Both the position numbers and the translations under genes were made by a program. Shown here one piece after another: positions 2,850 to 36,184 of a stretch of 64,000 bases of DNA. This DNA is from Nitrospirales bacterium (GTDB taxonomy: Bacteria; Nitrospirota; Nitrospiria; Nitrospirales; UBA8639), in contig OY820905.2 in the NCBI GenBank assembly GCA_963555755.3, positions 3,200,001-3,264,000 on the forward strand, read 5' to 3'. The notes beneath the pieces are model-generated. The model made no database searches. It was given only the letters and a program-made list of their open reading frames with translations, and was not told the DNA's origin. Every line of letters begins with the position of its first letter. The first letter of the stretch is position 1.

Positions 2850-3989
2850 TCAATTTTCGTAAGCGTAGCCGATGGTGACAAGGCCCTTGACATCTGAGGA
2901 GTCTGTCCCTTCAGATGGAGTATTATTGTATTTATAATTTATTTGTAACGAGAAGTTTAAGCCTTTCCAAAGCTTAAACCGGATTCCTTGAATGGTGTTG
3001 ACATAAAAATCACTCGTATCTTCCGTTGATGGAAACCCCTGTTGCCTGTGAAAGATTATTACGTCGTCTACAATCGGCCAATCCAAATTTACTGACCAGC
3101 GCCAGGTAAAGAAATTTATATCCTCTCCGATCTTTTTGTCTTCATTAAAAAAACCAACTCCAACATCTCCCGCAAGCTCCATTTCACGAAAATACGGGCT
3201 GGCATAGTCTCCCTTGTCAATGAGTTGATAGCCCGGGCCTGCGCTAACACTCGTGCGAAGGTTTAAATCATCAAAAGTATCTTGTTCCAGGAGAGTACTG
3301 AGGAATACATACGTGCGTTTTGTCATAAAAAAGTCCAATTGCCCGGACCCAAAAGCGTTTCTATCAGTTACCCTTTTATCATCTTCTGAATAAAAATATC
3401 GAGCCTCAAGTCTCAGCCGGAGCCGTTCACTCCGAGCCGAAAATTTACTTAACAAGTTCGCCTGTTTATTGACTGCGTTTCCTTCACTAAATTTTGCACC
3501 GAAATCGACATTTGCTTGATACAGCACAGCCTTTTTTGGGGGCGGGTTAATGGCCGTAATAGTGGATAAGGAGATGGGGATGGTCATGGCCAAAGGCTTA
3601 GATGCGAGTCGCAGTTCCCCTGGTTCGCCCTTTTCTAATGTACCGTTGATGCTGGTCCCATCCGCTAAAATCAGAGTGACGGACTGACTCGTGGCTATAT
3701 TCTGAACCTCTTCCCACTTGATGAGGAACGGGTCTCCGGCGCCAAAAGGCGCTTCAACTTGGAGTTTTCCTTTGACCATCTGGTTGATATCACCGTGTAT
3801 GATACTTCCATCCTTCATGATAATGGAGCTCAACACTCCTCCAAAGCTTGGGCCAGGCGCCCAAAAGATTAAACAAAACAAAAAAAGCACCCACCGGTGA
3901 ATCATCAAGAAGGTCCTTGTTGGTATTATCAACTTAGTGCGATTGGAACGATACAGGGCTCGTCGGCAGGCAGTTGTGTGATTCGCCAT
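2850..3989 (-). CDS. DUF481-family outer-membrane beta-barrel protein
   Basis: Signal peptide, N-terminal small beta domains, motif EQDTFDDLNLR..AGPGYQ, terminal TIGYAY. Real start probably at MIHRW. Confidence 0.75.
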   Translation of the reverse strand: MANHTTACRRALYRSNRTKLIIPTRTFLMIHRWVLFLFCLIFWAPGPSFGGVLSSIIMKDGSIIHGDINQMVKGKLQVEAPFGAGDPFLIKWEEVQNIATSQSVTLILADGTSINGTLEKGEPGELRLASKPLAMTIPISLSTITAINPPPKKAVLYQANVDFGAKFSEGNAVNKQANLLSKFSARSERLRLRLEARYFYSEDDKRVTDRNAFGSGQLDFFMTKRTYVFLSTLLEQDTFDDLNLRTSVSAGPGYQLIDKGDYASPYFREMELAGDVGVGFFNEDKKIGEDINFFTWRWSVNLDWPIVDDVIIFHRQQGFPSTEDTSDFYVNTIQGIRFKLWKGLNFSLQINYKYNNTPSEGTDSSDVKGLVTIGYAYEN

Positions 3990-25269: not shown

Positions 25270-25279
25270 CCCATAAGGC

Positions 25280-27182
25280 CAGGGCCATTTCATTCTTTTT
25301 ATAAGCAAGTGGTTCCATTAGGTTTTTTTGCTCTCTTTTTCAGGGCAAGGCCATACGGATGGCTACATGCGGCTTGGCCCAGAGCCATCTAAACGCCTGC
25401 GCGATATTGGTGTTGCCTTTCACGCGTAAGAGACTGATGGCATAGCGTCTCAGACAGGTCATGACCATCGGGCCATTGAGCCGTCTGATCTGACTCCGGT
25501 CTTCATCAAAGGTGACATCCAACACATAATGCTGCTTATTCTCCACACTCCAATGGTTCCGGTTTTGCGAGAGGATTTTCTGCGGCGATGCCTTCGCTGG
25601 TGACTGACTCGTGACTCCGCATACGGTATCTACCGTCGTGATGCCCTTCTTGAGATGCGCGACTTCCCTCTCAATGCAGAAGACTTGCTGCACATGGGGA
25701 AAGGTGACAGAGGCATTCAAGGAGTCGTCACACCAGATCCTACGGGTCGTGATCCGCCCATGGCCTTTATCGGTTGTTTCAGTATCACACCGTCGTACTC
25801 GCAACGCCAAGGCCTCAATGTCGCGTTTCAAGGTCGGCTGGTTCCCCTTGACGGTGAAGACGAAGTCGGCCCCGCGTTCTTGCACAAGGTAATTTGCGAT
25901 CTCTTTCTGGGTGAGGAGCGCATCCGCCGTGATGACCTTCCCTTCGATCTCCAGCTCATCGAATAAGGGACGCACGCAGGGGATCTCATTGGTCTTGGTG
26001 TCGACTTTTTTGGGGTGAGGTGGCGCCCCTCGTCATGGGTGACGGCACTGAGGACATGGGTCTGTTCGCTCGGGACCTTCGAAGTCCCCCGCATGGTCTT
26101 GCCATCAATGGCGATGCCCTGATCCTCCCCGCCGAAGGTATCCAGCCACCGGCCGAGCAGGGTATCGACTTCACAGGGGTCGACGGCATTGATAAACCGG
26201 TAGAGAGTGCTGCGGCTTGGGACGAGGTAGCGCCCTCCTCGCTTGGGACAGCCCAGCCGCGTTCTCATCGTCTGGGATAAATGCTGGGCCCAGTCCGCTA
26301 TGGCTTCATACCCACGTGCTCCACACAAGGTGGCACAGAACATGATCGCGGTGAGAGCTCGTCGGGGATGCCGTTGCCCTTGCAACTTGCGTGGATCGGT
26401 CAGCTGCACCACATAGGTAAACAGGGAGTCCGTCTGCTTGGTATTCAATCGCATCTGAGGCACCTTTCCTTTCTGATAGGTCGGATCAAGCATCGGGCGT
26501 GCAAGAATCTCTCGGGCTTGGGGATGGAGGCTCTTGACCAGGATGCGTTTCGGGCGGTCATGCTGAACATACCGCGTATTGGACTTGCGAAACCCGCGTG
26601 TCAGCCCGAGCTCCTGCCACCCGGCGGCTCGATAGCAGGTCCCGGTGAAGCGGGCAGGATCGACGAAGGTCTCTAAGAGGAGCAAGGGGTAGCCGTGGCA
26701 CAGGTGCCAATCGGCCGCGATCCGTTTCGCGCAGAGCGACAGGACTTTCGAGGCGAGGTTTTGTTGCGAACAGTCCGGCAGGATGAGAAACCGGGTGTTG
26801 TTGGCAAGTAAATGGAGGCGTTGCCATTGGAAACAGGGGGGCCAGCCGATCCAGTGGTCTCGCGCTCTCGATTTGAGGGCCGCCACCGCAAACACCCGCA
26901 AGGCCAGCCAGCGATCCTGCACACAGGCGAGATATTGGATCGATGGGCCAATCAACGGGGCAGGCCCGAGGTAGTGATGTCGGGCGAGAAGGGTCGTGAA
27001 GGCTTCCTTCTCGTCCGGGACAATCGGTCGAACTACGACTTGCCCAAGATCGATGGCCGGATGTCCGCTTGGCGATTCGTCTGGCATGAAAAAGAGTATG
27101 CCCCAAACGAAAAGAAAAAGCCAGCCTAAATCGATTATCCCTTATTATCTATGAAGTTGCACTTTAAAATGAAATAGTCCTG
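25280..27182 (-). mobile_element. ISAs1-family insertion sequence
   Basis: TIRs CAGGGCCATTTCATT / CAGGACTATTTCATT; 10-bp TSD CCCATAAGG(C/G). Confidence 0.9.
25340..27087 (-). CDS. ISAs1 transposase with N-terminal DUF4338-like domain; -1 frameshift near 26005-26011
   Basis: HHYLG, NNTRFLIL, LETFVDP..GTCYRAAGW; DPR..G.RH; AIDGKT.RG; after the shift TNEIP, TADAL, VKGNQP and HWSVEN. Confidence 0.88.
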
Positions 27183-27327
27183 CCCATAAGGGTCCCACAT
27201 CACCAGGATCTTCCCCATCTAAGCAGGCTGCCCCAATCCACGCAGACGGCCTGATTTCCTCCCGTGAGCCGATGTATTTCGGTTCGGCCCCTGAGCCGAC
27301 AGTCCTCCAACATACCTAAAACGCGAT

Positions 27328-29497: not shown

Positions 29498-31186
29498 ATG
29501 ATGAGAAGACGAACAGGTATTCTGGTGGCACCTCTTTTGTCGTTGTCCCTTTTCCTTGTGATCTCCGGGACATCATGGGGGGAAGGAAACGACGCCGCAC
29601 AACCTAAACTCGTTCTGCAAATCACGGTTGATCAGTTTCGAGGGGATTTACCAACGAGGCATGTGGATCGTCTCGGCAAAGGAGGTCTTCGGTATCTTTT
29701 AGAAAAAGGCACTCATTATGCGAACGCGCATTATCGGCATGCCAATACGGAAACGGCCGTGGGTCATGCCACACTTTTTACCGGAGCTGACCCTTCAAGA
29801 CATGGATTAGTCGGCAATGCGTGGATTGATCCGTTGACCGGCGAATCTGTGTATAACACGGAAGATGCCCGCCATCATCTCATCGGGAAAGATCCAAAAC
29901 CGCACGAGGGTGTCTCCCCGCGCAATCTCCTGGCCAGTACGATTGGTGATGAGCTGGTGGTCTCCAATGCCGGTCAATCGCGCGTGTTCAGTGTCTCGAT
30001 CAAAGATCGGGGTGCCATCATTCCTGGTGGGCATGCGGGTAAAGCCTTTTGGTATTCCAAACGCACAGGAGAATTTGTCACCAGTACGTATTATTACGAT
30101 GCGTATCCCCAATGGGTGAAGCAATGGAATCAAGCAAAGCCGGCGGATCGCTATAGAGGAAAGACATGGGAGTTGCTCCATGACCGCTCCACCTACGTGG
30201 CAGGAAAAATGGATGATCGTCCGTATGAAGCGAACTTCCCACCGTTGGGGAGAACCTTCCCTCATCAATTCGGGGACAACAAATACCTCTACTTGATTCT
30301 TTCATTGACTCCGGTTGGTGATGAATTGACGCTCGATTTTACCAAGACCCTTATTGAACATGAAAACCTCGGTCAAGGCGATCATGTTGATTTCCTGGCG
30401 GTCAGTTTTTCTTCGACCGATTATATCGGTCACATGTTCGGCCCATCGAGTCTTGAGAGTGAAGACAATGTTTTACGGCTTGACCGCATCTTAGCGGAGC
30501 TATTTGACTTTGTTGATAAAAAAGTTGGTTTGCAAAACACCCTTATTGTCCTCTCGGCCGATCACGGGGCACCGGAAGCGCCGGAATATATGACGAGTCT
30601 CGGGATGGAGGCCGGACGCTTCGACCTTACGTATTTCAGGGAGCAAGGGCCGTTAAACAAAGTATTAAAAACGCGTTTTGGGCGTGATGATTTGATTGCC
30701 ACGCATAGCCATCCGTATCTCTATCTGAATGTGGACGCTATTACTGAAGCGAAACTTGATATCGAAGAGGTAGAAAAATTTATCGCAGAGGAAGTCATGA
30801 AAATCCCGGGGATTGCGTACGCGCAGACACGGAGCGACCTGCTCGCGGGACGGATAGCGAATTCTCCTTTGCAAATCCAGATTCGACGCAACTTTCATCC
30901 CACGCGTTCCGGGCATATCCACATGATTCAGGAGCAATATTGGTTTTTACATTCCACGGATGAGGCGGCAAAGATGGGGATTGGAACGATTGCGGTAATC
31001 CACGGATCGCCATGGGCGTATGATACCTATGTCCCGATATTTTTTGCCGGCCACCATGTGCCTGCCCAAACGATTACCCGGCGAGTGGCACCCAGCGATA
31101 TTGCTCCCACGCTTGCAGCATATTTGAACATTAAATTTCCATCCGGATCCATCGGGAACCCGCTAAAAGAAATTTTAGAAAAATGA
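29498..31186 (+). CDS. PafA-like alkaline phosphatase superfamily protein
   Basis: ITVDQFRGD, Thr nucleophile motif TETAVGHAT, D.IGH.FGP, SADHG, HGSPW.YD. Confidence 0.92.
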   Translation: MMRRRTGILVAPLLSLSLFLVISGTSWGEGNDAAQPKLVLQITVDQFRGDLPTRHVDRLGKGGLRYLLEKGTHYANAHYRHANTETAVGHATLFTGADPSRHGLVGNAWIDPLTGESVYNTEDARHHLIGKDPKPHEGVSPRNLLASTIGDELVVSNAGQSRVFSVSIKDRGAIIPGGHAGKAFWYSKRTGEFVTSTYYYDAYPQWVKQWNQAKPADRYRGKTWELLHDRSTYVAGKMDDRPYEANFPPLGRTFPHQFGDNKYLYLILSLTPVGDELTLDFTKTLIEHENLGQGDHVDFLAVSFSSTDYIGHMFGPSSLESEDNVLRLDRILAELFDFVDKKVGLQNTLIVLSADHGAPEAPEYMTSLGMEAGRFDLTYFREQGPLNKVLKTRFGRDDLIATHSHPYLYLNVDAITEAKLDIEEVEKFIAEEVMKIPGIAYAQTRSDLLAGRIANSPLQIQIRRNFHPTRSGHIHMIQEQYWFLHSTDEAAKMGIGTIAVIHGSPWAYDTYVPIFFAGHHVPAQTITRRVAPSDIAPTLAAYLNIKFPSGSIGNPLKEILEK

Positions 31187-31264
31187 TAAGTGAAAAATGA
31201 TAAGTGAAAAATGAACAAAAGAGAGCCCATTTTTCACTTTTCATTGTTCATTTTTCACTTATTC
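31178..31264. repeat. Heptamer-repeat hairpin A
   Basis: AAATGAA-like units followed by their reverse complement; contains the stops of both convergent genes. Confidence 0.9.
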
Positions 31265-32413
31265 CCCCAGCTCTTTGAATAATTTGGTTGGATGAAGGAC
31301 TCGCGCAAAGGATAGTTTTAACGGCTGTTTGACCGGCGCAACGATAAAACAGGGGACCTCCGGATGGCTTTCATGGAACGATCGTAAACCAGACAAATCG
31401 CTTGAGGAAGGATTTGCAGAAATCTTGCATTCTATCGCGTAGAGAATTTCTGTCCCGCGGCTGATTAACAAGTCGACTTCAGCCCCATGGCTTGTCCGCC
31501 AGAAGGAGAGTTTCCAGTCTCTTTGATAGTATTCGTTATGTCGGATAACTTCTTGTATGAACCATTGTTCATAGAGACGTCCTTGTTCGATACGACTTGG
31601 CGGGTCTTTCAGTGTTCCTAAAATGGCTCGGGTCACACCATTATCGAAAAAATAAAATTTTGGCTGATGACTCATGCGTTTTCGTTGGCTTTTCAAATAG
31701 GGGTACAGGAAGGTTCCCAGTAACGTATCTTCAAAAATAGAATAATATTCACGGACTGTTGAAAGTGCTATTTGGCAATCACGAGCGATACCGGAAAAAT
31801 TTATCTGTTCTGCATATTGTGCGGCGGCAACATCTAAAAAGTTCTGAAAACCTTGAAGGTTTCGCACCAGAGCTTCCGCTTTCACCTCCTCTTTGAGGTA
31901 GGTGATCACGTAAGCTCTTAAGAGATCTTCTGCTTCCGCTGGTTTTCTTTGATTGAGGGTAGTGTAGATTTTAGGGAGCGAACCATATGCGAGTATCCAT
32001 TGCAGATTAAAGGTCTTAGACAATTCCTCGAATGTCAAAGGATGCATGGTGCGGTATAACGCTCTTCCTCCAAGTAGATTTGCTGCGCCGTGCCGAAGTT
32101 TTCGGGCAGAGGAGCCGCATAGAATAAATGTGAGTTTCGGCTTCTGTTCCATCAGTGAGTGGATGACATCAAGAATTTTGGGGACACGCTGTACTTCATC
32201 AATAAATATTGTCGAGGATTCTTTGAGTTCTTCGACCTGTTCCCTTAGCAGGTTAGGATTTTTTGTGTACGAGAGTTGGAGCTCAGGATCGAGCAGGTCG
32301 ATTGTCAAATTCGCGTTCTCCTTTTTTAAAAGCGTGCTTTTCCCAACCTGGCGTGGGCCAAACAGAAAGAAGCTCTTTTTGGGCAATTGATTCTCCAAAG
32401 TTCTTGAATACAT
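31259..32413 (-). CDS. AAA+ ATPase with DUF4143 domain
   Basis: GPRQVGKST, FIDEVQ, GSS, LLGGR, PKFYFFD.G, EVDL..IECK. Confidence 0.92.
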   Translation of the reverse strand: MYSRTLENQLPKKSFFLFGPRQVGKSTLLKKENANLTIDLLDPELQLSYTKNPNLLREQVEELKESSTIFIDEVQRVPKILDVIHSLMEQKPKLTFILCGSSARKLRHGAANLLGGRALYRTMHPLTFEELSKTFNLQWILAYGSLPKIYTTLNQRKPAEAEDLLRAYVITYLKEEVKAEALVRNLQGFQNFLDVAAAQYAEQINFSGIARDCQIALSTVREYYSIFEDTLLGTFLYPYLKSQRKRMSHQPKFYFFDNGVTRAILGTLKDPPSRIEQGRLYEQWFIQEVIRHNEYYQRDWKLSFWRTSHGAEVDLLISRGTEILYAIECKISANPSSSDLSGLRSFHESHPEVPCFIVAPVKQPLKLSFARVLHPTKLFKELGE

Positions 32414-32452
32414 AATTGTTAATATACCGTGCAAATTAACATGATATCAAGC

Positions 32453-32600
32453 AAAATGAAGGGAAAGGAAAAATGAACAATGGTAAATGAAAAGTGAAAA
32501 ATGGAAATAAAAATTTTGGACACCCAATTTTTCATTTATCATTTTTAATTTCCCTCCATCATTTTTCATTTTTCACTTTTCATTATTCATTTATCACTTA
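32453..32600. repeat. Heptamer-repeat hairpin B
   Basis: Purine-rich arm, AAAATTTTGG loop, pyrimidine-rich arm ending just before the RBS of 32618. Confidence 0.88.
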
Positions 32601-32617
32601 GTTCAGGAGGTTTCGTC

Positions 32618-33331
32618 ATGAAGTCGTTAACGCGTATCGTATTATGTATGTTTGTCCTAGCGGTGGCAGTCGGATGCGCCTCAACCAAGGTCACCAAGCG
32701 CGACTCGAAGATCGGCACGGAAAAGATTGCTCGGCCCGATCGTATTTATGTGTATCCCTTTGCGGCCACACCTGCCGACATCCCAACCTGGTCCGTTTCC
32801 GCAGGCCGGTATGCTGAAAGCACCACACCACAAACGCCAGAGCAAAGCGAGATGGGTCGAAACCTGGGCGTCCTCGTGGCGAAGGCATTGGTCACGGAAA
32901 TTCAGAAGATGGGACTTCCAGGATTAAGGGGTGCCAGCTACACCGTTCCGCGAATCAACAACATTATGATCATAGGGTATTTTGAAGCGGTCGAAGAAGG
33001 CAGTACGGTCAAACGCCTCTCACTTGGTTTCGGTTCCGGGGCCACAGAGTTAACGACAGCCGTGGAGGGCTACCAAATGACCCCTGAGGGCCCGCGCCTT
33101 CTTGGATCGGCCGAGCTCCAATCCGGCGGAGGAAAAACGCCTGGTTTGATTGTTCCTATTGCGGTACTCGCCGCCACCGCTAATCCGATCGGGCTTCTTG
33201 TTATGGGAGCGATGAAAGTGCGTGGTGAGATGACAGGAAGCAGTAAGCTCGAAGGTGCAGCCAAACGAACGGCCGAGGCCATTGCTGATCGGCTACGGGT
33301 ACGATTCAAGGAACAGGGGTGGATTCGGTAA
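32618..33331 (+). CDS. DUF4410-family lipoprotein
   Basis: AGGAGG RBS; lipobox AVGC; EEGS..R..LGFGSG and GGKTPG. Confidence 0.8.
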   Translation: MKSLTRIVLCMFVLAVAVGCASTKVTKRDSKIGTEKIARPDRIYVYPFAATPADIPTWSVSAGRYAESTTPQTPEQSEMGRNLGVLVAKALVTEIQKMGLPGLRGASYTVPRINNIMIIGYFEAVEEGSTVKRLSLGFGSGATELTTAVEGYQMTPEGPRLLGSAELQSGGGKTPGLIVPIAVLAATANPIGLLVMGAMKVRGEMTGSSKLEGAAKRTAEAIADRLRVRFKEQGWIR

Positions 33332-33662
33332 ATGAAAAATAATAGGGGAAATTAAAAATGATAAATGATAAATGAACAATTATGGTGGAAAATTTAAAAA
33401 GGAACAATGATAGGGGAAATTAAAAATGATAAATGATAAATGAACAATTATGGTGGAAAATTTAAAAAGGAACAATGATAGGGGAAATTAAAAATGATAA
33501 ATGATAAACGATTGGGGAAATGAAAAGTGAACAATGATAAATGAAAAATTATGGTGGAAAAATGAAAATTTTGGCCCCTAACCTTAATTTTTCATTTTTC
33601 ACTTTTCATTTTTAATTTCCCCTATTCTTTTTCACTTTTCATTTATCATTTTTCATTATTAA
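33329..33662. repeat. Heptamer-repeat block C with internal 68-bp tandem repeats
   Basis: 68-bp units start at 33343, 33411 and 33479 (last partial); inverted relative to block D. Confidence 0.9.
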
Positions 33663-33665
33663 TTT

Positions 33666-34019
33666 ATGAAGGATAATCCCCTTAAAGATAAGAGTTATAC
33701 ATTTGCAATTCGTGTTGTGAAACTATCTCAATTTTTACAGCAGGATAAAAAAGAGTTTGTGCTGAGCAAGCAAGTGCTTCGCAGTGGTACTGCAATCGGT
33801 GCACTCATTCGGGAGGCGGAGTTTGGGCAGAGTAAGGCGGATTTTGCTAGTAAAATGAGTATTTCATTGAAAGAGGCTAACGAAACGGAATATTGGTTGT
33901 CTTTGTTAAAGAACACAGACCTTATTGGTGAAGAGCAGTTTGTGAGTTTACAGTCTGACTGTAAGGAATTAATCGCGATGTTGGTATCAACGGTAAAAAC
34001 GGTAAAAAATGAAAAATGA
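33666..34019 (+). CDS. Four helix bundle protein (23S rRNA intervening-sequence protein / Avd-like family)
   Basis: KSY.FAIR..LSKQVLRSGTAIGA..REA..QS.ADF..K..I.LKEA.ET.YWL.LL. Confidence 0.93.
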   Translation: MKDNPLKDKSYTFAIRVVKLSQFLQQDKKEFVLSKQVLRSGTAIGALIREAEFGQSKADFASKMSISLKEANETEYWLSLLKNTDLIGEEQFVSLQSDCKELIAMLVSTVKTVKNEK

Positions 34020-34190
34020 AAAGTGAAAAATGAAAAGTGAACAACTAAAAATGAACAATGAAAAGTGAAAAATGAAAAATGAAGGTTAGGGGCCAAAATT
34101 TTCATTATTCATTTTTAAATTTTCCACCATAATTTTTCATTTATCATTATTCATTTTTCATTTCCCTTATTATTTTTCATTTTTAATTTT
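34004..34190. repeat. Heptamer-repeat block D
   Basis: Starts within the last codons of the four-helix gene; reverse complement of block C. Confidence 0.9.
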
Positions 34191-34195
34191 CTGCT

Positions 34196-35191
34196 ATGCA
34201 AGACAAAGTCGTCAAATACTCCGTTCTCTTCATCGCCCTGGTACTGGGGGCGCACGTGCTGCAGACGCTGGCGCAGGTGCTTCGGCCTCTGGCTATTGCT
34301 GTACTACTGCTGTTCGTGTTCACACCGCTGGCGCGCTACTCGAAGGAGAAGGGCATCCCGGTGTGGCTCACGTTCTCGGGAGCACTCGTGGCAGTGGTCC
34401 TACTCCTGAGCTTCGCCGGTTCCTTCCTCCACGTAGACGACATCCACCTGCAAGACAAAATTCCGCAGCTCCAGGAGAGGATCCGCAGCGATGGCGACGG
34501 TCTGCTGGCGACCGCGCTTCGGTTGGGGCTCGACCAGAGCTTTACACCGGAGAAGCTGAGCAACCTGGCAACGGCCACTGCCAGTCTAGGACTGGCGGCG
34601 GTTCGCACGCTGATCAGTGAGTCGCTTCTGGCTTTGATTCTGCTGATGTTCCTGGTGCAGTCCCGCGCACTGCTGGTGAGTGCCGTGGAGCGCAAATACG
34701 GTGCGACCGGTGTGGAAAATCTCGAGGCGATCGTGCGCAAAATCGAGGGGGATGTGGTCGCCTATCTCGGGACCAAAACCGCCATCAGCTTCGGGACGGC
34801 AGTGGTAAGCGGCGGCGTCCTTTTCCTGTTCAGCGCCAAGGCCATCGTTATCACCTCCCTGCTGATCTTCCTCCTGAATTATATTCCGATCATCGGTTCG
34901 CTGATCGCCGTCCTTATCGCCTTCGTGGTCTATGTCGTGAGCTTCGGCCTGACGGCGACGGCGGGTTGGATGCTGCTGGCGATGATGGCTGTCCAGATCC
35001 TGTTTGGCAGCATCCTGGAGCCGAAAATCGCGGGAAAGCAGCTGAATATGTCGCCGATCCTCATCGTCATCAGCCTTTATGTCTGGGGATGGATCTGGGG
35101 CATCACCGGCATGCTGCTATCGGTGCCGCTGACTATCTTCATCCTTGTCGCCGTCAAGCACGTCGCTGGCACGGAGAAAAATGAAAAGTGA
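34196..35191 (+). CDS. AI-2E family transporter
   Basis: LNYIPIIGS, ILEPK..G..LN.SP, WGWIWG..GMLL.VP; visibly GC-richer than its neighbours. Confidence 0.92.
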   Translation: MQDKVVKYSVLFIALVLGAHVLQTLAQVLRPLAIAVLLLFVFTPLARYSKEKGIPVWLTFSGALVAVVLLLSFAGSFLHVDDIHLQDKIPQLQERIRSDGDGLLATALRLGLDQSFTPEKLSNLATATASLGLAAVRTLISESLLALILLMFLVQSRALLVSAVERKYGATGVENLEAIVRKIEGDVVAYLGTKTAISFGTAVVSGGVLFLFSAKAIVITSLLIFLLNYIPIIGSLIAVLIAFVVYVVSFGLTATAGWMLLAMMAVQILFGSILEPKIAGKQLNMSPILIVISLYVWGWIWGITGMLLSVPLTIFILVAVKHVAGTEKNEK

Positions 35192-35380
35192 ACAACGAAA
35201 AATGAAAAGTGAACAACGAAAAATGAAAAGTGAACAATGAAAAATGAAAAGTGAACAATGAAAAATGAAAAGTGAACAGTGAACAACTAAAATTGAAAAG
35301 TGAACAGCGAACAATGAATAGTGAAAAATTAACCATGCGGATATCACAACAATGAAAACCTATTTTTCATTTATCATTGT
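35176..35380. repeat. Heptamer-repeat block E
   Basis: About five 21-bp units GAAAAATGAAAAGTGAACAA(C/T), then a short complementary arm. Confidence 0.9.
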
Positions 35381-35441
35381 GGCGGGCTCTAATCAATAAG
35401 TCACCAGTTTCATTGGGCCAGAAAATTGGGGGAGACTATTG

Positions 35442-36184
35442 ATGGTGCATCGAAGTTCATTGAAGGTTCCAAGTCGTTTCTTGAAATATTGTGTTCTGGG
35501 TCTGAGTGCCACCATTCTCTTTGGATGCGCGAAAGCATTGGTTGTGCCGATCAATCCTGCCAGTGAGGGCTTGCCAAAACCCGACCATATTGTGGTCTAC
35601 GATTTTGTGGTCACGTCTGGAGATGTACAGCTCGATGTTGGTGTTGGAACCAAAATGCTTCGCGATGCGAAAGGCACCTCTCAGACTGCAGAGGAAATCC
35701 GTGTCGGCCGTGCGGTGGCCGAGGCGCTTTCCAAAAAATGGTTGAGGAACTTCGGGGAAAGGGCATTACGGCCTATCGAGCGCGTTTTACTCCCCCTGCC
35801 TCTTCAACCACAGCATCAATTAAAGGGCAATTCAGGCAAATCGATCAGGGAAACCGAACCCTTCGGACTATGGTGGGTTTCGGGTTTGGAGGGAGTAAGC
35901 TGGGGACAAGCATCCAGTTCTATCAGGGAAAGGGACGGGAGGCGAAATTGGTCGGAGAAGCGGAAACCATGACTGAAAGCAGTTTAAAGCCCGGCATTGG
36001 CGTTCTCTTTCCAGTTGGTGCTGCGGCTGGGACTGTGGCGACGGCTGCTGCGGTCAGTGGTACGACCACTGTCGCCATGGAGAAATTTTTCGCGACCGTT
36101 GAAGCAGATGCCAAACGTACTGCCGAGGCTATTGCAAAAAGAATTATCAACTATTACGAGCGTCATGGGTGGCACAGGCGGTAA
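35442..36184 (+). pseudogene. DUF4410-family lipoprotein, frameshifted in an A6 run (35733-35738)
   Basis: One extra A fuses ORFs 35439 and 35738 into a full-length paralog. Confidence 0.8.

Follow-up and report, generated by a model that had tools for sequence, protein, structure and literature searches.

A four-helix-bundle gene between complementary heptamer arms in Nitrospirales: a candidate mobile cassette

The locus and the enclosed gene

The window, a stretch of 64,000 nucleotides from a Nitrospirales bacterium, contains a small open reading frame (ORF) of 117 aa (33666..34019) between a DUF4410 gene (PF14366; 32618..33331) and an AI-2E transporter gene (PF01594; 34196..35191), all on the forward strand. 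Both flanks of the ORF are arrays of degenerate 7-nt repeats, each arranged as an A-rich arm, a short core and a T-rich arm. The left block starts on the DUF4410 stop codon with a forward-strand A-rich arm (33329..33568), which includes a 68-nt unit present 2.6 times (33330-33508), continues through a non-periodic loop core (33569..33585) and ends with a T-rich arm (33586..33665) that runs up to the ATG of the ORF. The right block has its A-rich arm at 34005..34081, overlapping the last codons and the stop of the ORF, then a core (34082..34098) that is the exact inverted copy of the left one, and a T-rich arm (34099..34190) that stops 5 nt short of the AI-2E start. The AI-2E gene has no Shine-Dalgarno sequence and its 3' end falls inside a further long A-rich arm with a short T-rich partner (35176..35380). 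On the other side, two hairpin blocks of the same heptamer family (31178..31257 and 32462..32600, the latter before the DUF4410 gene) enclose a reverse-strand gene for an AAA_14 and DUF4143 protein (31259..32434). With these further blocks at 31178, 32462 and 35176, one block stands between each gene and the next in the series phosphodiesterase, AAA, DUF4410, four-helix and AI-2E, and several genes of this stretch have their stop codons inside an arm.

A sequence-only reading of the window had described the two blocks as reverse complements, each able to fold on itself, and both descriptions were borne out. Positions 33561-33585 are the exact reverse complement of 34082-34106 (25 bp), and past a single mismatch (33586/34081) the inner stem continues for 24 perfect base pairs to 33610/34057. 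An outer segment of 29 bp (33533-33561 with 34120-34148) also pairs perfectly, as that reading had it except that its start had been placed one position too early, at 33532; 13 additional bases on the right side (34107-34119) put it out of register with the inner stem. Folding, which had been proposed as a check, gave −269.4 kcal/mol for 33300-34220 (z −13.9, with none of 20 shuffles as good), and the single blocks folded on themselves at −55.2 (33478-33665) and −47.7 kcal/mol (34005-34195). Two bases of the start codon are paired in the predicted long-range fold, and the ATG at 33666 indeed lacks a Shine-Dalgarno sequence.

Sequencing contigs from two runs in two studies matched 33882-34225 with no other letters; the left block was bridged by none of the contig pieces among the matches listed. 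Among the runs listed with a match, none was recorded as RNA. No intrinsic terminator was called at the unit, 31100-35500 holding 2 sites against 5.2 expected. An Rfam scan of the window returned only a tRNA, and the unit is flanked by protein genes rather than lying inside an rRNA gene.

The ORF product belongs to TIGR02436 / PF05635, scoring 103 bits against a curated cut-off of 24 and 93 against 33.8, respectively. The predicted structure consists of four helices (pLDDT 95), aligns with BT_0352 (2RLD, five chains) at a TM of 0.91 and 58% identity, and also matches Xcc0516. Family searches with the protein returned four-helix-bundle families only; no nuclease or recombinase family was matched, and no HUH Y1 transposase was found between the inverted repeats. 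With Avd of diversity-generating retroelements (4DWL, 8UBE) the model shares the fold, at a TM of about 0.75-0.76, but the two are 14-17% identical and no reverse transcriptase or template repeat was found near the ORF among the 11 window proteins scanned against Pfam. PF05635 has been likened to Avd (PMC10053308; 10.1101/2023.10.23.563531), whose pentamer is described as binding structured RNA and gripping flipped-out RNA bases between its protomers (10.1101/2023.10.23.563531), and the protein encoded here is likewise predicted to be a pentamer. Ten relatives were compared at the codon level: dS was saturated in three, and in the seven with computable values dN was 0.035-0.082 against a dS of 0.19-1.4, giving a dN/dS of about 0.06-0.2. 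The ORF is under purifying selection.

Complementary arms among family members and their link to protein clade

The 80 closest homologous genome loci, which are spread over many phyla, were collected, and 75 remained after five with short flanks were dropped. Complementarity between flanks was assessed from alignment scores with a threshold of z>3, using flanks 1 kb away as a control. The upstream flank was complementary to the downstream flank at 63 of the 75 loci and at 3 of 62 distal controls, counts that are not independent because the loci are related. Direct similarity between flanks reached z>3 at 22 of the close-homologue loci, and the 7-nt periodicity of the flanks was 0.52/0.49 against about 0.31. 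Among 42 more distant family members complementary arms were present in 28 of the 37 that could be scored.

The commonest form, in 41 of 141 non-redundant loci, is a single A-rich arm 5' of the gene and a single T-rich arm 3' of it; full hairpins on both flanks, as in the window, were found in 22 of the 141. Gene direction was examined at 154 loci, some of them too short or unclassified, and the gene pointed the same way as its upstream neighbour in 110 of 113 classifiable cases and as its downstream neighbour in 101 of 114. By eye, the arms often start on the upstream stop codon and finish near the next start. The unit recurs at the 3' ends of genes over many phyla. Family members are also multiple within genomes, 15 genomes chosen for holding one member giving 2-18 family matches each.

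The genome of the window has four family members with three repeat types. When downstream arms were ranked within each genome (89 usable of 94 loci), the cognate one came first in 61 of 82 tests, against 12 expected by chance. Between genomes, arms cross-paired for 62% of the 138 pairs with a protein identity of 55-70% and for 91% of the 56 pairs above 70%, and among 337 same-genome pairs under 45% identity they did so in 1-5%. These comparisons, which rest on a quick protein tree with many open forks and on kin that are not independent, show at the level of sequence that arm type tracks protein clade rather than host. Since dS is saturated in relatives at about 73-75% identity, the heptamer consensus outlasts neutral linkage. 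It is likely that the protein binds its own repeat type, and such recognition would be the force that maintains the repeat consensus; joint inheritance plus concerted evolution could give the same linkage between arm and clade with no recognition by the protein.

These data also bear on whether the heptamers are a genome-wide slippage repeat that lies beside an ordinary accessory gene by chance. The genome of the window has 135 periodic tracts, most without an ORF, and relatives differ by indels of 7n bases, as slippage would predict. Against this, copies within one genome bear different, self-matching repeats, which largely refutes the explanation, and the dominant repeat of the genome differs from that of the locus and flanks another family member. 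Slippage beside a chance neighbour is decidedly improbable. A second family member, in the loop of a hairpin of the dominant family (G000:C1:3789350-3790015), is apparently interrupted near its 5' end by another palindromic repeat. Single arms of up to about 40 units that have no equal partner also occur in this genome (G000:C1:3382134-3382833, 2747259-2747493 and 4254882-4255040).

Alleles, junction states and signs of movement

Four alleles of the unit comprising the four-helix and AI-2E genes were compared: the window, L016, a paralogue in the same genome (C1:3159278) and L196. In two of them, the window and L016, the left core is an inverted copy of the right one, their core sequences differing from each other; the paralogue and L196 have a direct left core. 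For the core before DUF4410, the window and G005 share the direct form and L016 has the inverted one, and L223 provides an independent case of an inverted core. Arm length and cores differ among the four alleles and there are no fixed terminal repeats. The predicted advantage of the long-range fold over local folds is 76 kcal/mol in the window, compared with 21 for L016 and 10 for the paralogue. L016, a contig labelled Caldithrix sp., is syntenic and 85-89% identical to the window over about 3 kb, which reflects either a recent transfer or a mis-binned contig. The paralogous unit (G000:C1:3159278-3160000) has a truncated AI-2E gene, of which about 59 codons match.

The ORF has the same orientation in all four alleles, and the flips are limited to the short loop cores. 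This bears on one of the possibilities raised by the sequence-only reading, an invertible DNA segment that would switch the gene on and off by phase variation. The inverted repeats are long enough to recombine and the loop cores do flip between alleles, but the constant orientation of the ORF and its co-directionality with upstream and downstream neighbours argue against inversion of the gene. Joints in the contigs of four sequencing runs trace to the paralogue or to further copies of the repeat, with no strand-change joint among those listed, contigs being prone to drop rare variants. An invertible segment is extremely improbable.

The same reading had proposed a mobile unit with ends of about 190 bp. 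Mobility is supported; the ends are short heptamer arms, and the long match is not conserved in the alleles. The match of about 190 bp is likely to be a recent copying accident between the two ends of the cassette, local to the window copy, in which a template switch or gene conversion would have overwritten one hairpin with an inverted copy of the other. Template switching has two known outcomes, homogenisation of arms and inversion of the spacer (PMC8604942), but the cases reported there have much shorter spacers than the spacing of more than 400 nt seen here. The long perfect stem of the window copy is probably an incidental by-product.

Empty sites in relatives, which had been suggested as a check, were found at orthologous operon junctions. 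At an aldolase-II gene junction, which we take to be araB-araD, the upstream homologue was adjacent in 24 of 30 loci, and the junction was a gap of at most 12 nt in eight, an ORF-less heptamer hairpin in four and a cassette in one; the four ORF-less hairpins are, by eye, of different types. At the FTCD_C junction a cassette was present in 5 of 30 loci and an ORF-less hairpin in 2 of 30. Orthologous junctions thus occur in empty, ORF-less and ORF-bearing states. Behind DUF4410 homologues a cassette was found in 1 of 29 loci examined, the paralogue of the same genome. G005 was considered as a clean empty site and rejected, as the 3' end of its DUF4410 belongs to another type. At a second site in G005, the orthologue of G000:C1:4437161, two hairpins of different heptamer families are seemingly nested, one inside the other.

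For ORF-less hairpins, 33 sites were entered into a comparison with relatives, 3 of those listed having no syntenic pair. Hairpins were shared, with indels of 7n bases, at 18 of the 24 evaluable sites, so most are positionally stable in the genus and turnover is slow. At the other 6 sites other sequence was in place, often another hairpin, and in the flagellar region one junction may bear different repeat families in different relatives.

Evidence for the manner of movement was sought in flanking duplications. Duplications of at least 11 nt, the shortest within reach of the test, flanked 4 of 131 loci (of 160; non-redundant, both arms detected) against a null of 1.4%, so there is no general target-site duplication, and a constant one was rejected. 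Duplications of 13-19 bp flank individual copies (L074, L212 and L213). At L074 (about 2900-3430) the first ~25 nt of the downstream gene occur on both sides of the cassette (a 19-nt match); the product of that gene is SpvB/TcdB-like by Pfam.

In the clade closest to the window gene the cassette lies behind DUF3604 genes, and at 9 of 16 loci of this type the last codons of that gene (WYTP) are repeated after the downstream arm at a fixed distance, with one further match at 157 nt (L198, L200-L202, L204, L209, L211-L213 and L021). Cassette genes that are 84-86% alike in DNA occur behind DUF3604 genes with proteins only 53-62% alike, and L205 and L021 retain only a 3' fragment of the DUF3604 gene. 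This pattern fits transfer by recombination that carried flanking DNA along.

The alternative of a non-autonomous, MITE-like transposon with terminal inverted repeats of about 190 bp and a transposase acting in trans would account for the long inverted repeat, the 13-19 bp duplications and the fixed distance of the WYTP copy. It is highly improbable given the scarcity of longer duplications, ends that vary in length and are not common to alleles, and the replacement of missing hairpins by other sequence at 6 of 24 sites. Movement would instead rely on recombination assisted by homology, with no part for a transposase.

The AAA_14 and DUF4143 gene is missing from the syntenic L016, where a single block is found instead (L016:213-460 compared with window 31178-32600), and is present between two blocks in G005, as in the window. 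It is possible that this gene is cargo gained or lost between hairpins.

RNA stem, mobile cassette and related systems

The main rival to a mobile cassette is an mRNA intervening sequence (IVS), in which RNase III would cleave the stem formed by the paired arms, the ORF would be released or silenced and the operon would tolerate the event. The sequence-only reading had likened the unit to an IVS, and the likeness holds for the architecture. In Coxiella burnetii an S23p ORF of the same protein family lies within a 28-bp stem in the 23S gene, with tandem heptamers upstream of it and RNase III cutting at the first repeat (PMC4990558). Shared with the rRNA IVSs of Coxiella and Leptospira, as described there, are a terminal stem whose loop contains a PF05635 ORF (the fold being a prediction here), heptamers beside the ORF and a poor Shine-Dalgarno sequence. 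The family is reported at several rRNA insertion sites, and rRNA insertions of CPR bacteria occur in ORF-less and ORF-bearing forms (10.1101/2024.02.27.582315), as here. The cassette differs in lying at a junction of protein genes, with arrays on both sides and each flank itself a hairpin, and in that its ORF is under purifying selection, while that of Coxiella is reported to be in decay (PMC4990558). Since it does not lie in rRNA, the cassette does not belong with the rRNA IVSs, yet it is built like one.

An IVS in mRNA would be helped by the RNase III gene present in the genome, by the preference of the window copy for the long-range fold and by the partly paired start codon. The placement of hairpins in this genome also favours it: of 119, 69 lie in tandem gaps, 31 in convergent, 9 in divergent and 10 in coding sequence, where the background has 522 convergent and 588 divergent gaps. 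The fold advantage, however, falls to the 21 and 10 kcal/mol of L016 and the paralogue, and comparisons of the arms gave little sign of selection on pairing. Across 48 hairpins of a single family, all lacking an ORF, variable positions paired at 0.677 in cognate and 0.673 in swapped arms, with no excess of locus-specific compensatory pairing, and the arm-only duplex was slightly better in cognate combinations (−24.9 against −23.7, sd 0.51). Sense-strand G-U exceeded A-C among close homologues (119:75, from 28 loci against 19) but not in distant homologues (34:32) or in the hairpins of the genome itself (79:86); an excess in one of three sets is inconsistent and was rejected as a signal of stem selection. 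By these comparisons, selection for an RNA stem is weak. As judged from the sequences, the inverted arrangement of the heptamer consensus is preserved and exact pairing is not, which suits recognition of the unit by a protein or concerted evolution. Cutting without ligation, established for IVSs (PMC4990558), would moreover fragment the operon message, and cleavage could also be a side effect of a mobile cassette. An mRNA IVS is on this evidence unlikely.

On balance we lean, by no wide measure, towards the four-helix gene and its complementary heptamer arms forming a mobile cassette that spreads by recombination of the arms, its protein likely binding its own repeat type. In the host transcript the arms would be predicted to pair and loop out the ORF, with the upstream stop and downstream start near the base of the stem. 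The long perfect match of the window copy would then result from an inverted hairpin copy made by recent template switching or gene conversion. The allelic series at the locus, with core flips, arm-to-arm copying and gain or loss of a neighbour gene, indicates that arms recombine and hints at a way of moving. It also cautions against reading function into a perfect stem, however striking, that is seen at a single copy; interest centres on the class of cassettes rather than on the long stem of the window copy.

Intergenic 7-nt arrays are likewise known as the cyanobacterial STRR, and REP/RAYT and integron attC systems combine a gene flanked by inverted repeats with dispersed gene-less hairpins of the same type. 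The possible gain or loss of genes between hairpins, here the AAA gene, strengthens the latter likeness, but the enclosed protein is small and all-helical, the arms are tandem heptamers and no conserved crossover site was found at these units. The TAACTGA repeats of Beggiatoaceae (PMC4679880) similarly form 7-nt arrays between genes near start and stop codons, carry stops in all three frames and are patchy over phyla, and their mechanism of spread is given as unknown. They are direct repeats for which the available text names no four-helix partner, in contrast to the inverted pairs tied to protein clade seen here. Genes of the present kind appear without comment in the available part of PMC5524665, and the open literature, subscription papers and supplements apart, yielded no description linking the PF05635 family to heptamer hairpins outside rRNA.

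As a broader and tentative proposal, PF05635 proteins might be sequence-specific readers of heptamer arrays, the pentamer of each clade recognizing its own 7-nt unit and aiding the maintenance or spread of cassettes and gene-less hairpins alike. In that case the 23S IVSs, intergenic heptamers and cassettes would form a single mobile system of two parts, Avd a domesticated member, and the hairpins also exchange sites for neighbour genes such as the AAA ATPase. PF05635 is very large and without a function, and heptamer repeats have so far been without a partner or a means of spread, as far as the available text of PMC4679880 goes; a clade-matched pair of protein and repeat makes both questions testable, with BT_0352, of solved structure and from a tractable host, as a model.

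Elsewhere in the window, a multicopy element of about 1.9 kb at 25270-27190, matched about 40 times in the genome (87-99% identity), is probably an insertion sequence, and 35439-36184 holds a second DUF4410 gene that is seemingly split across two frames (ORFs of 177 and 148 aa).
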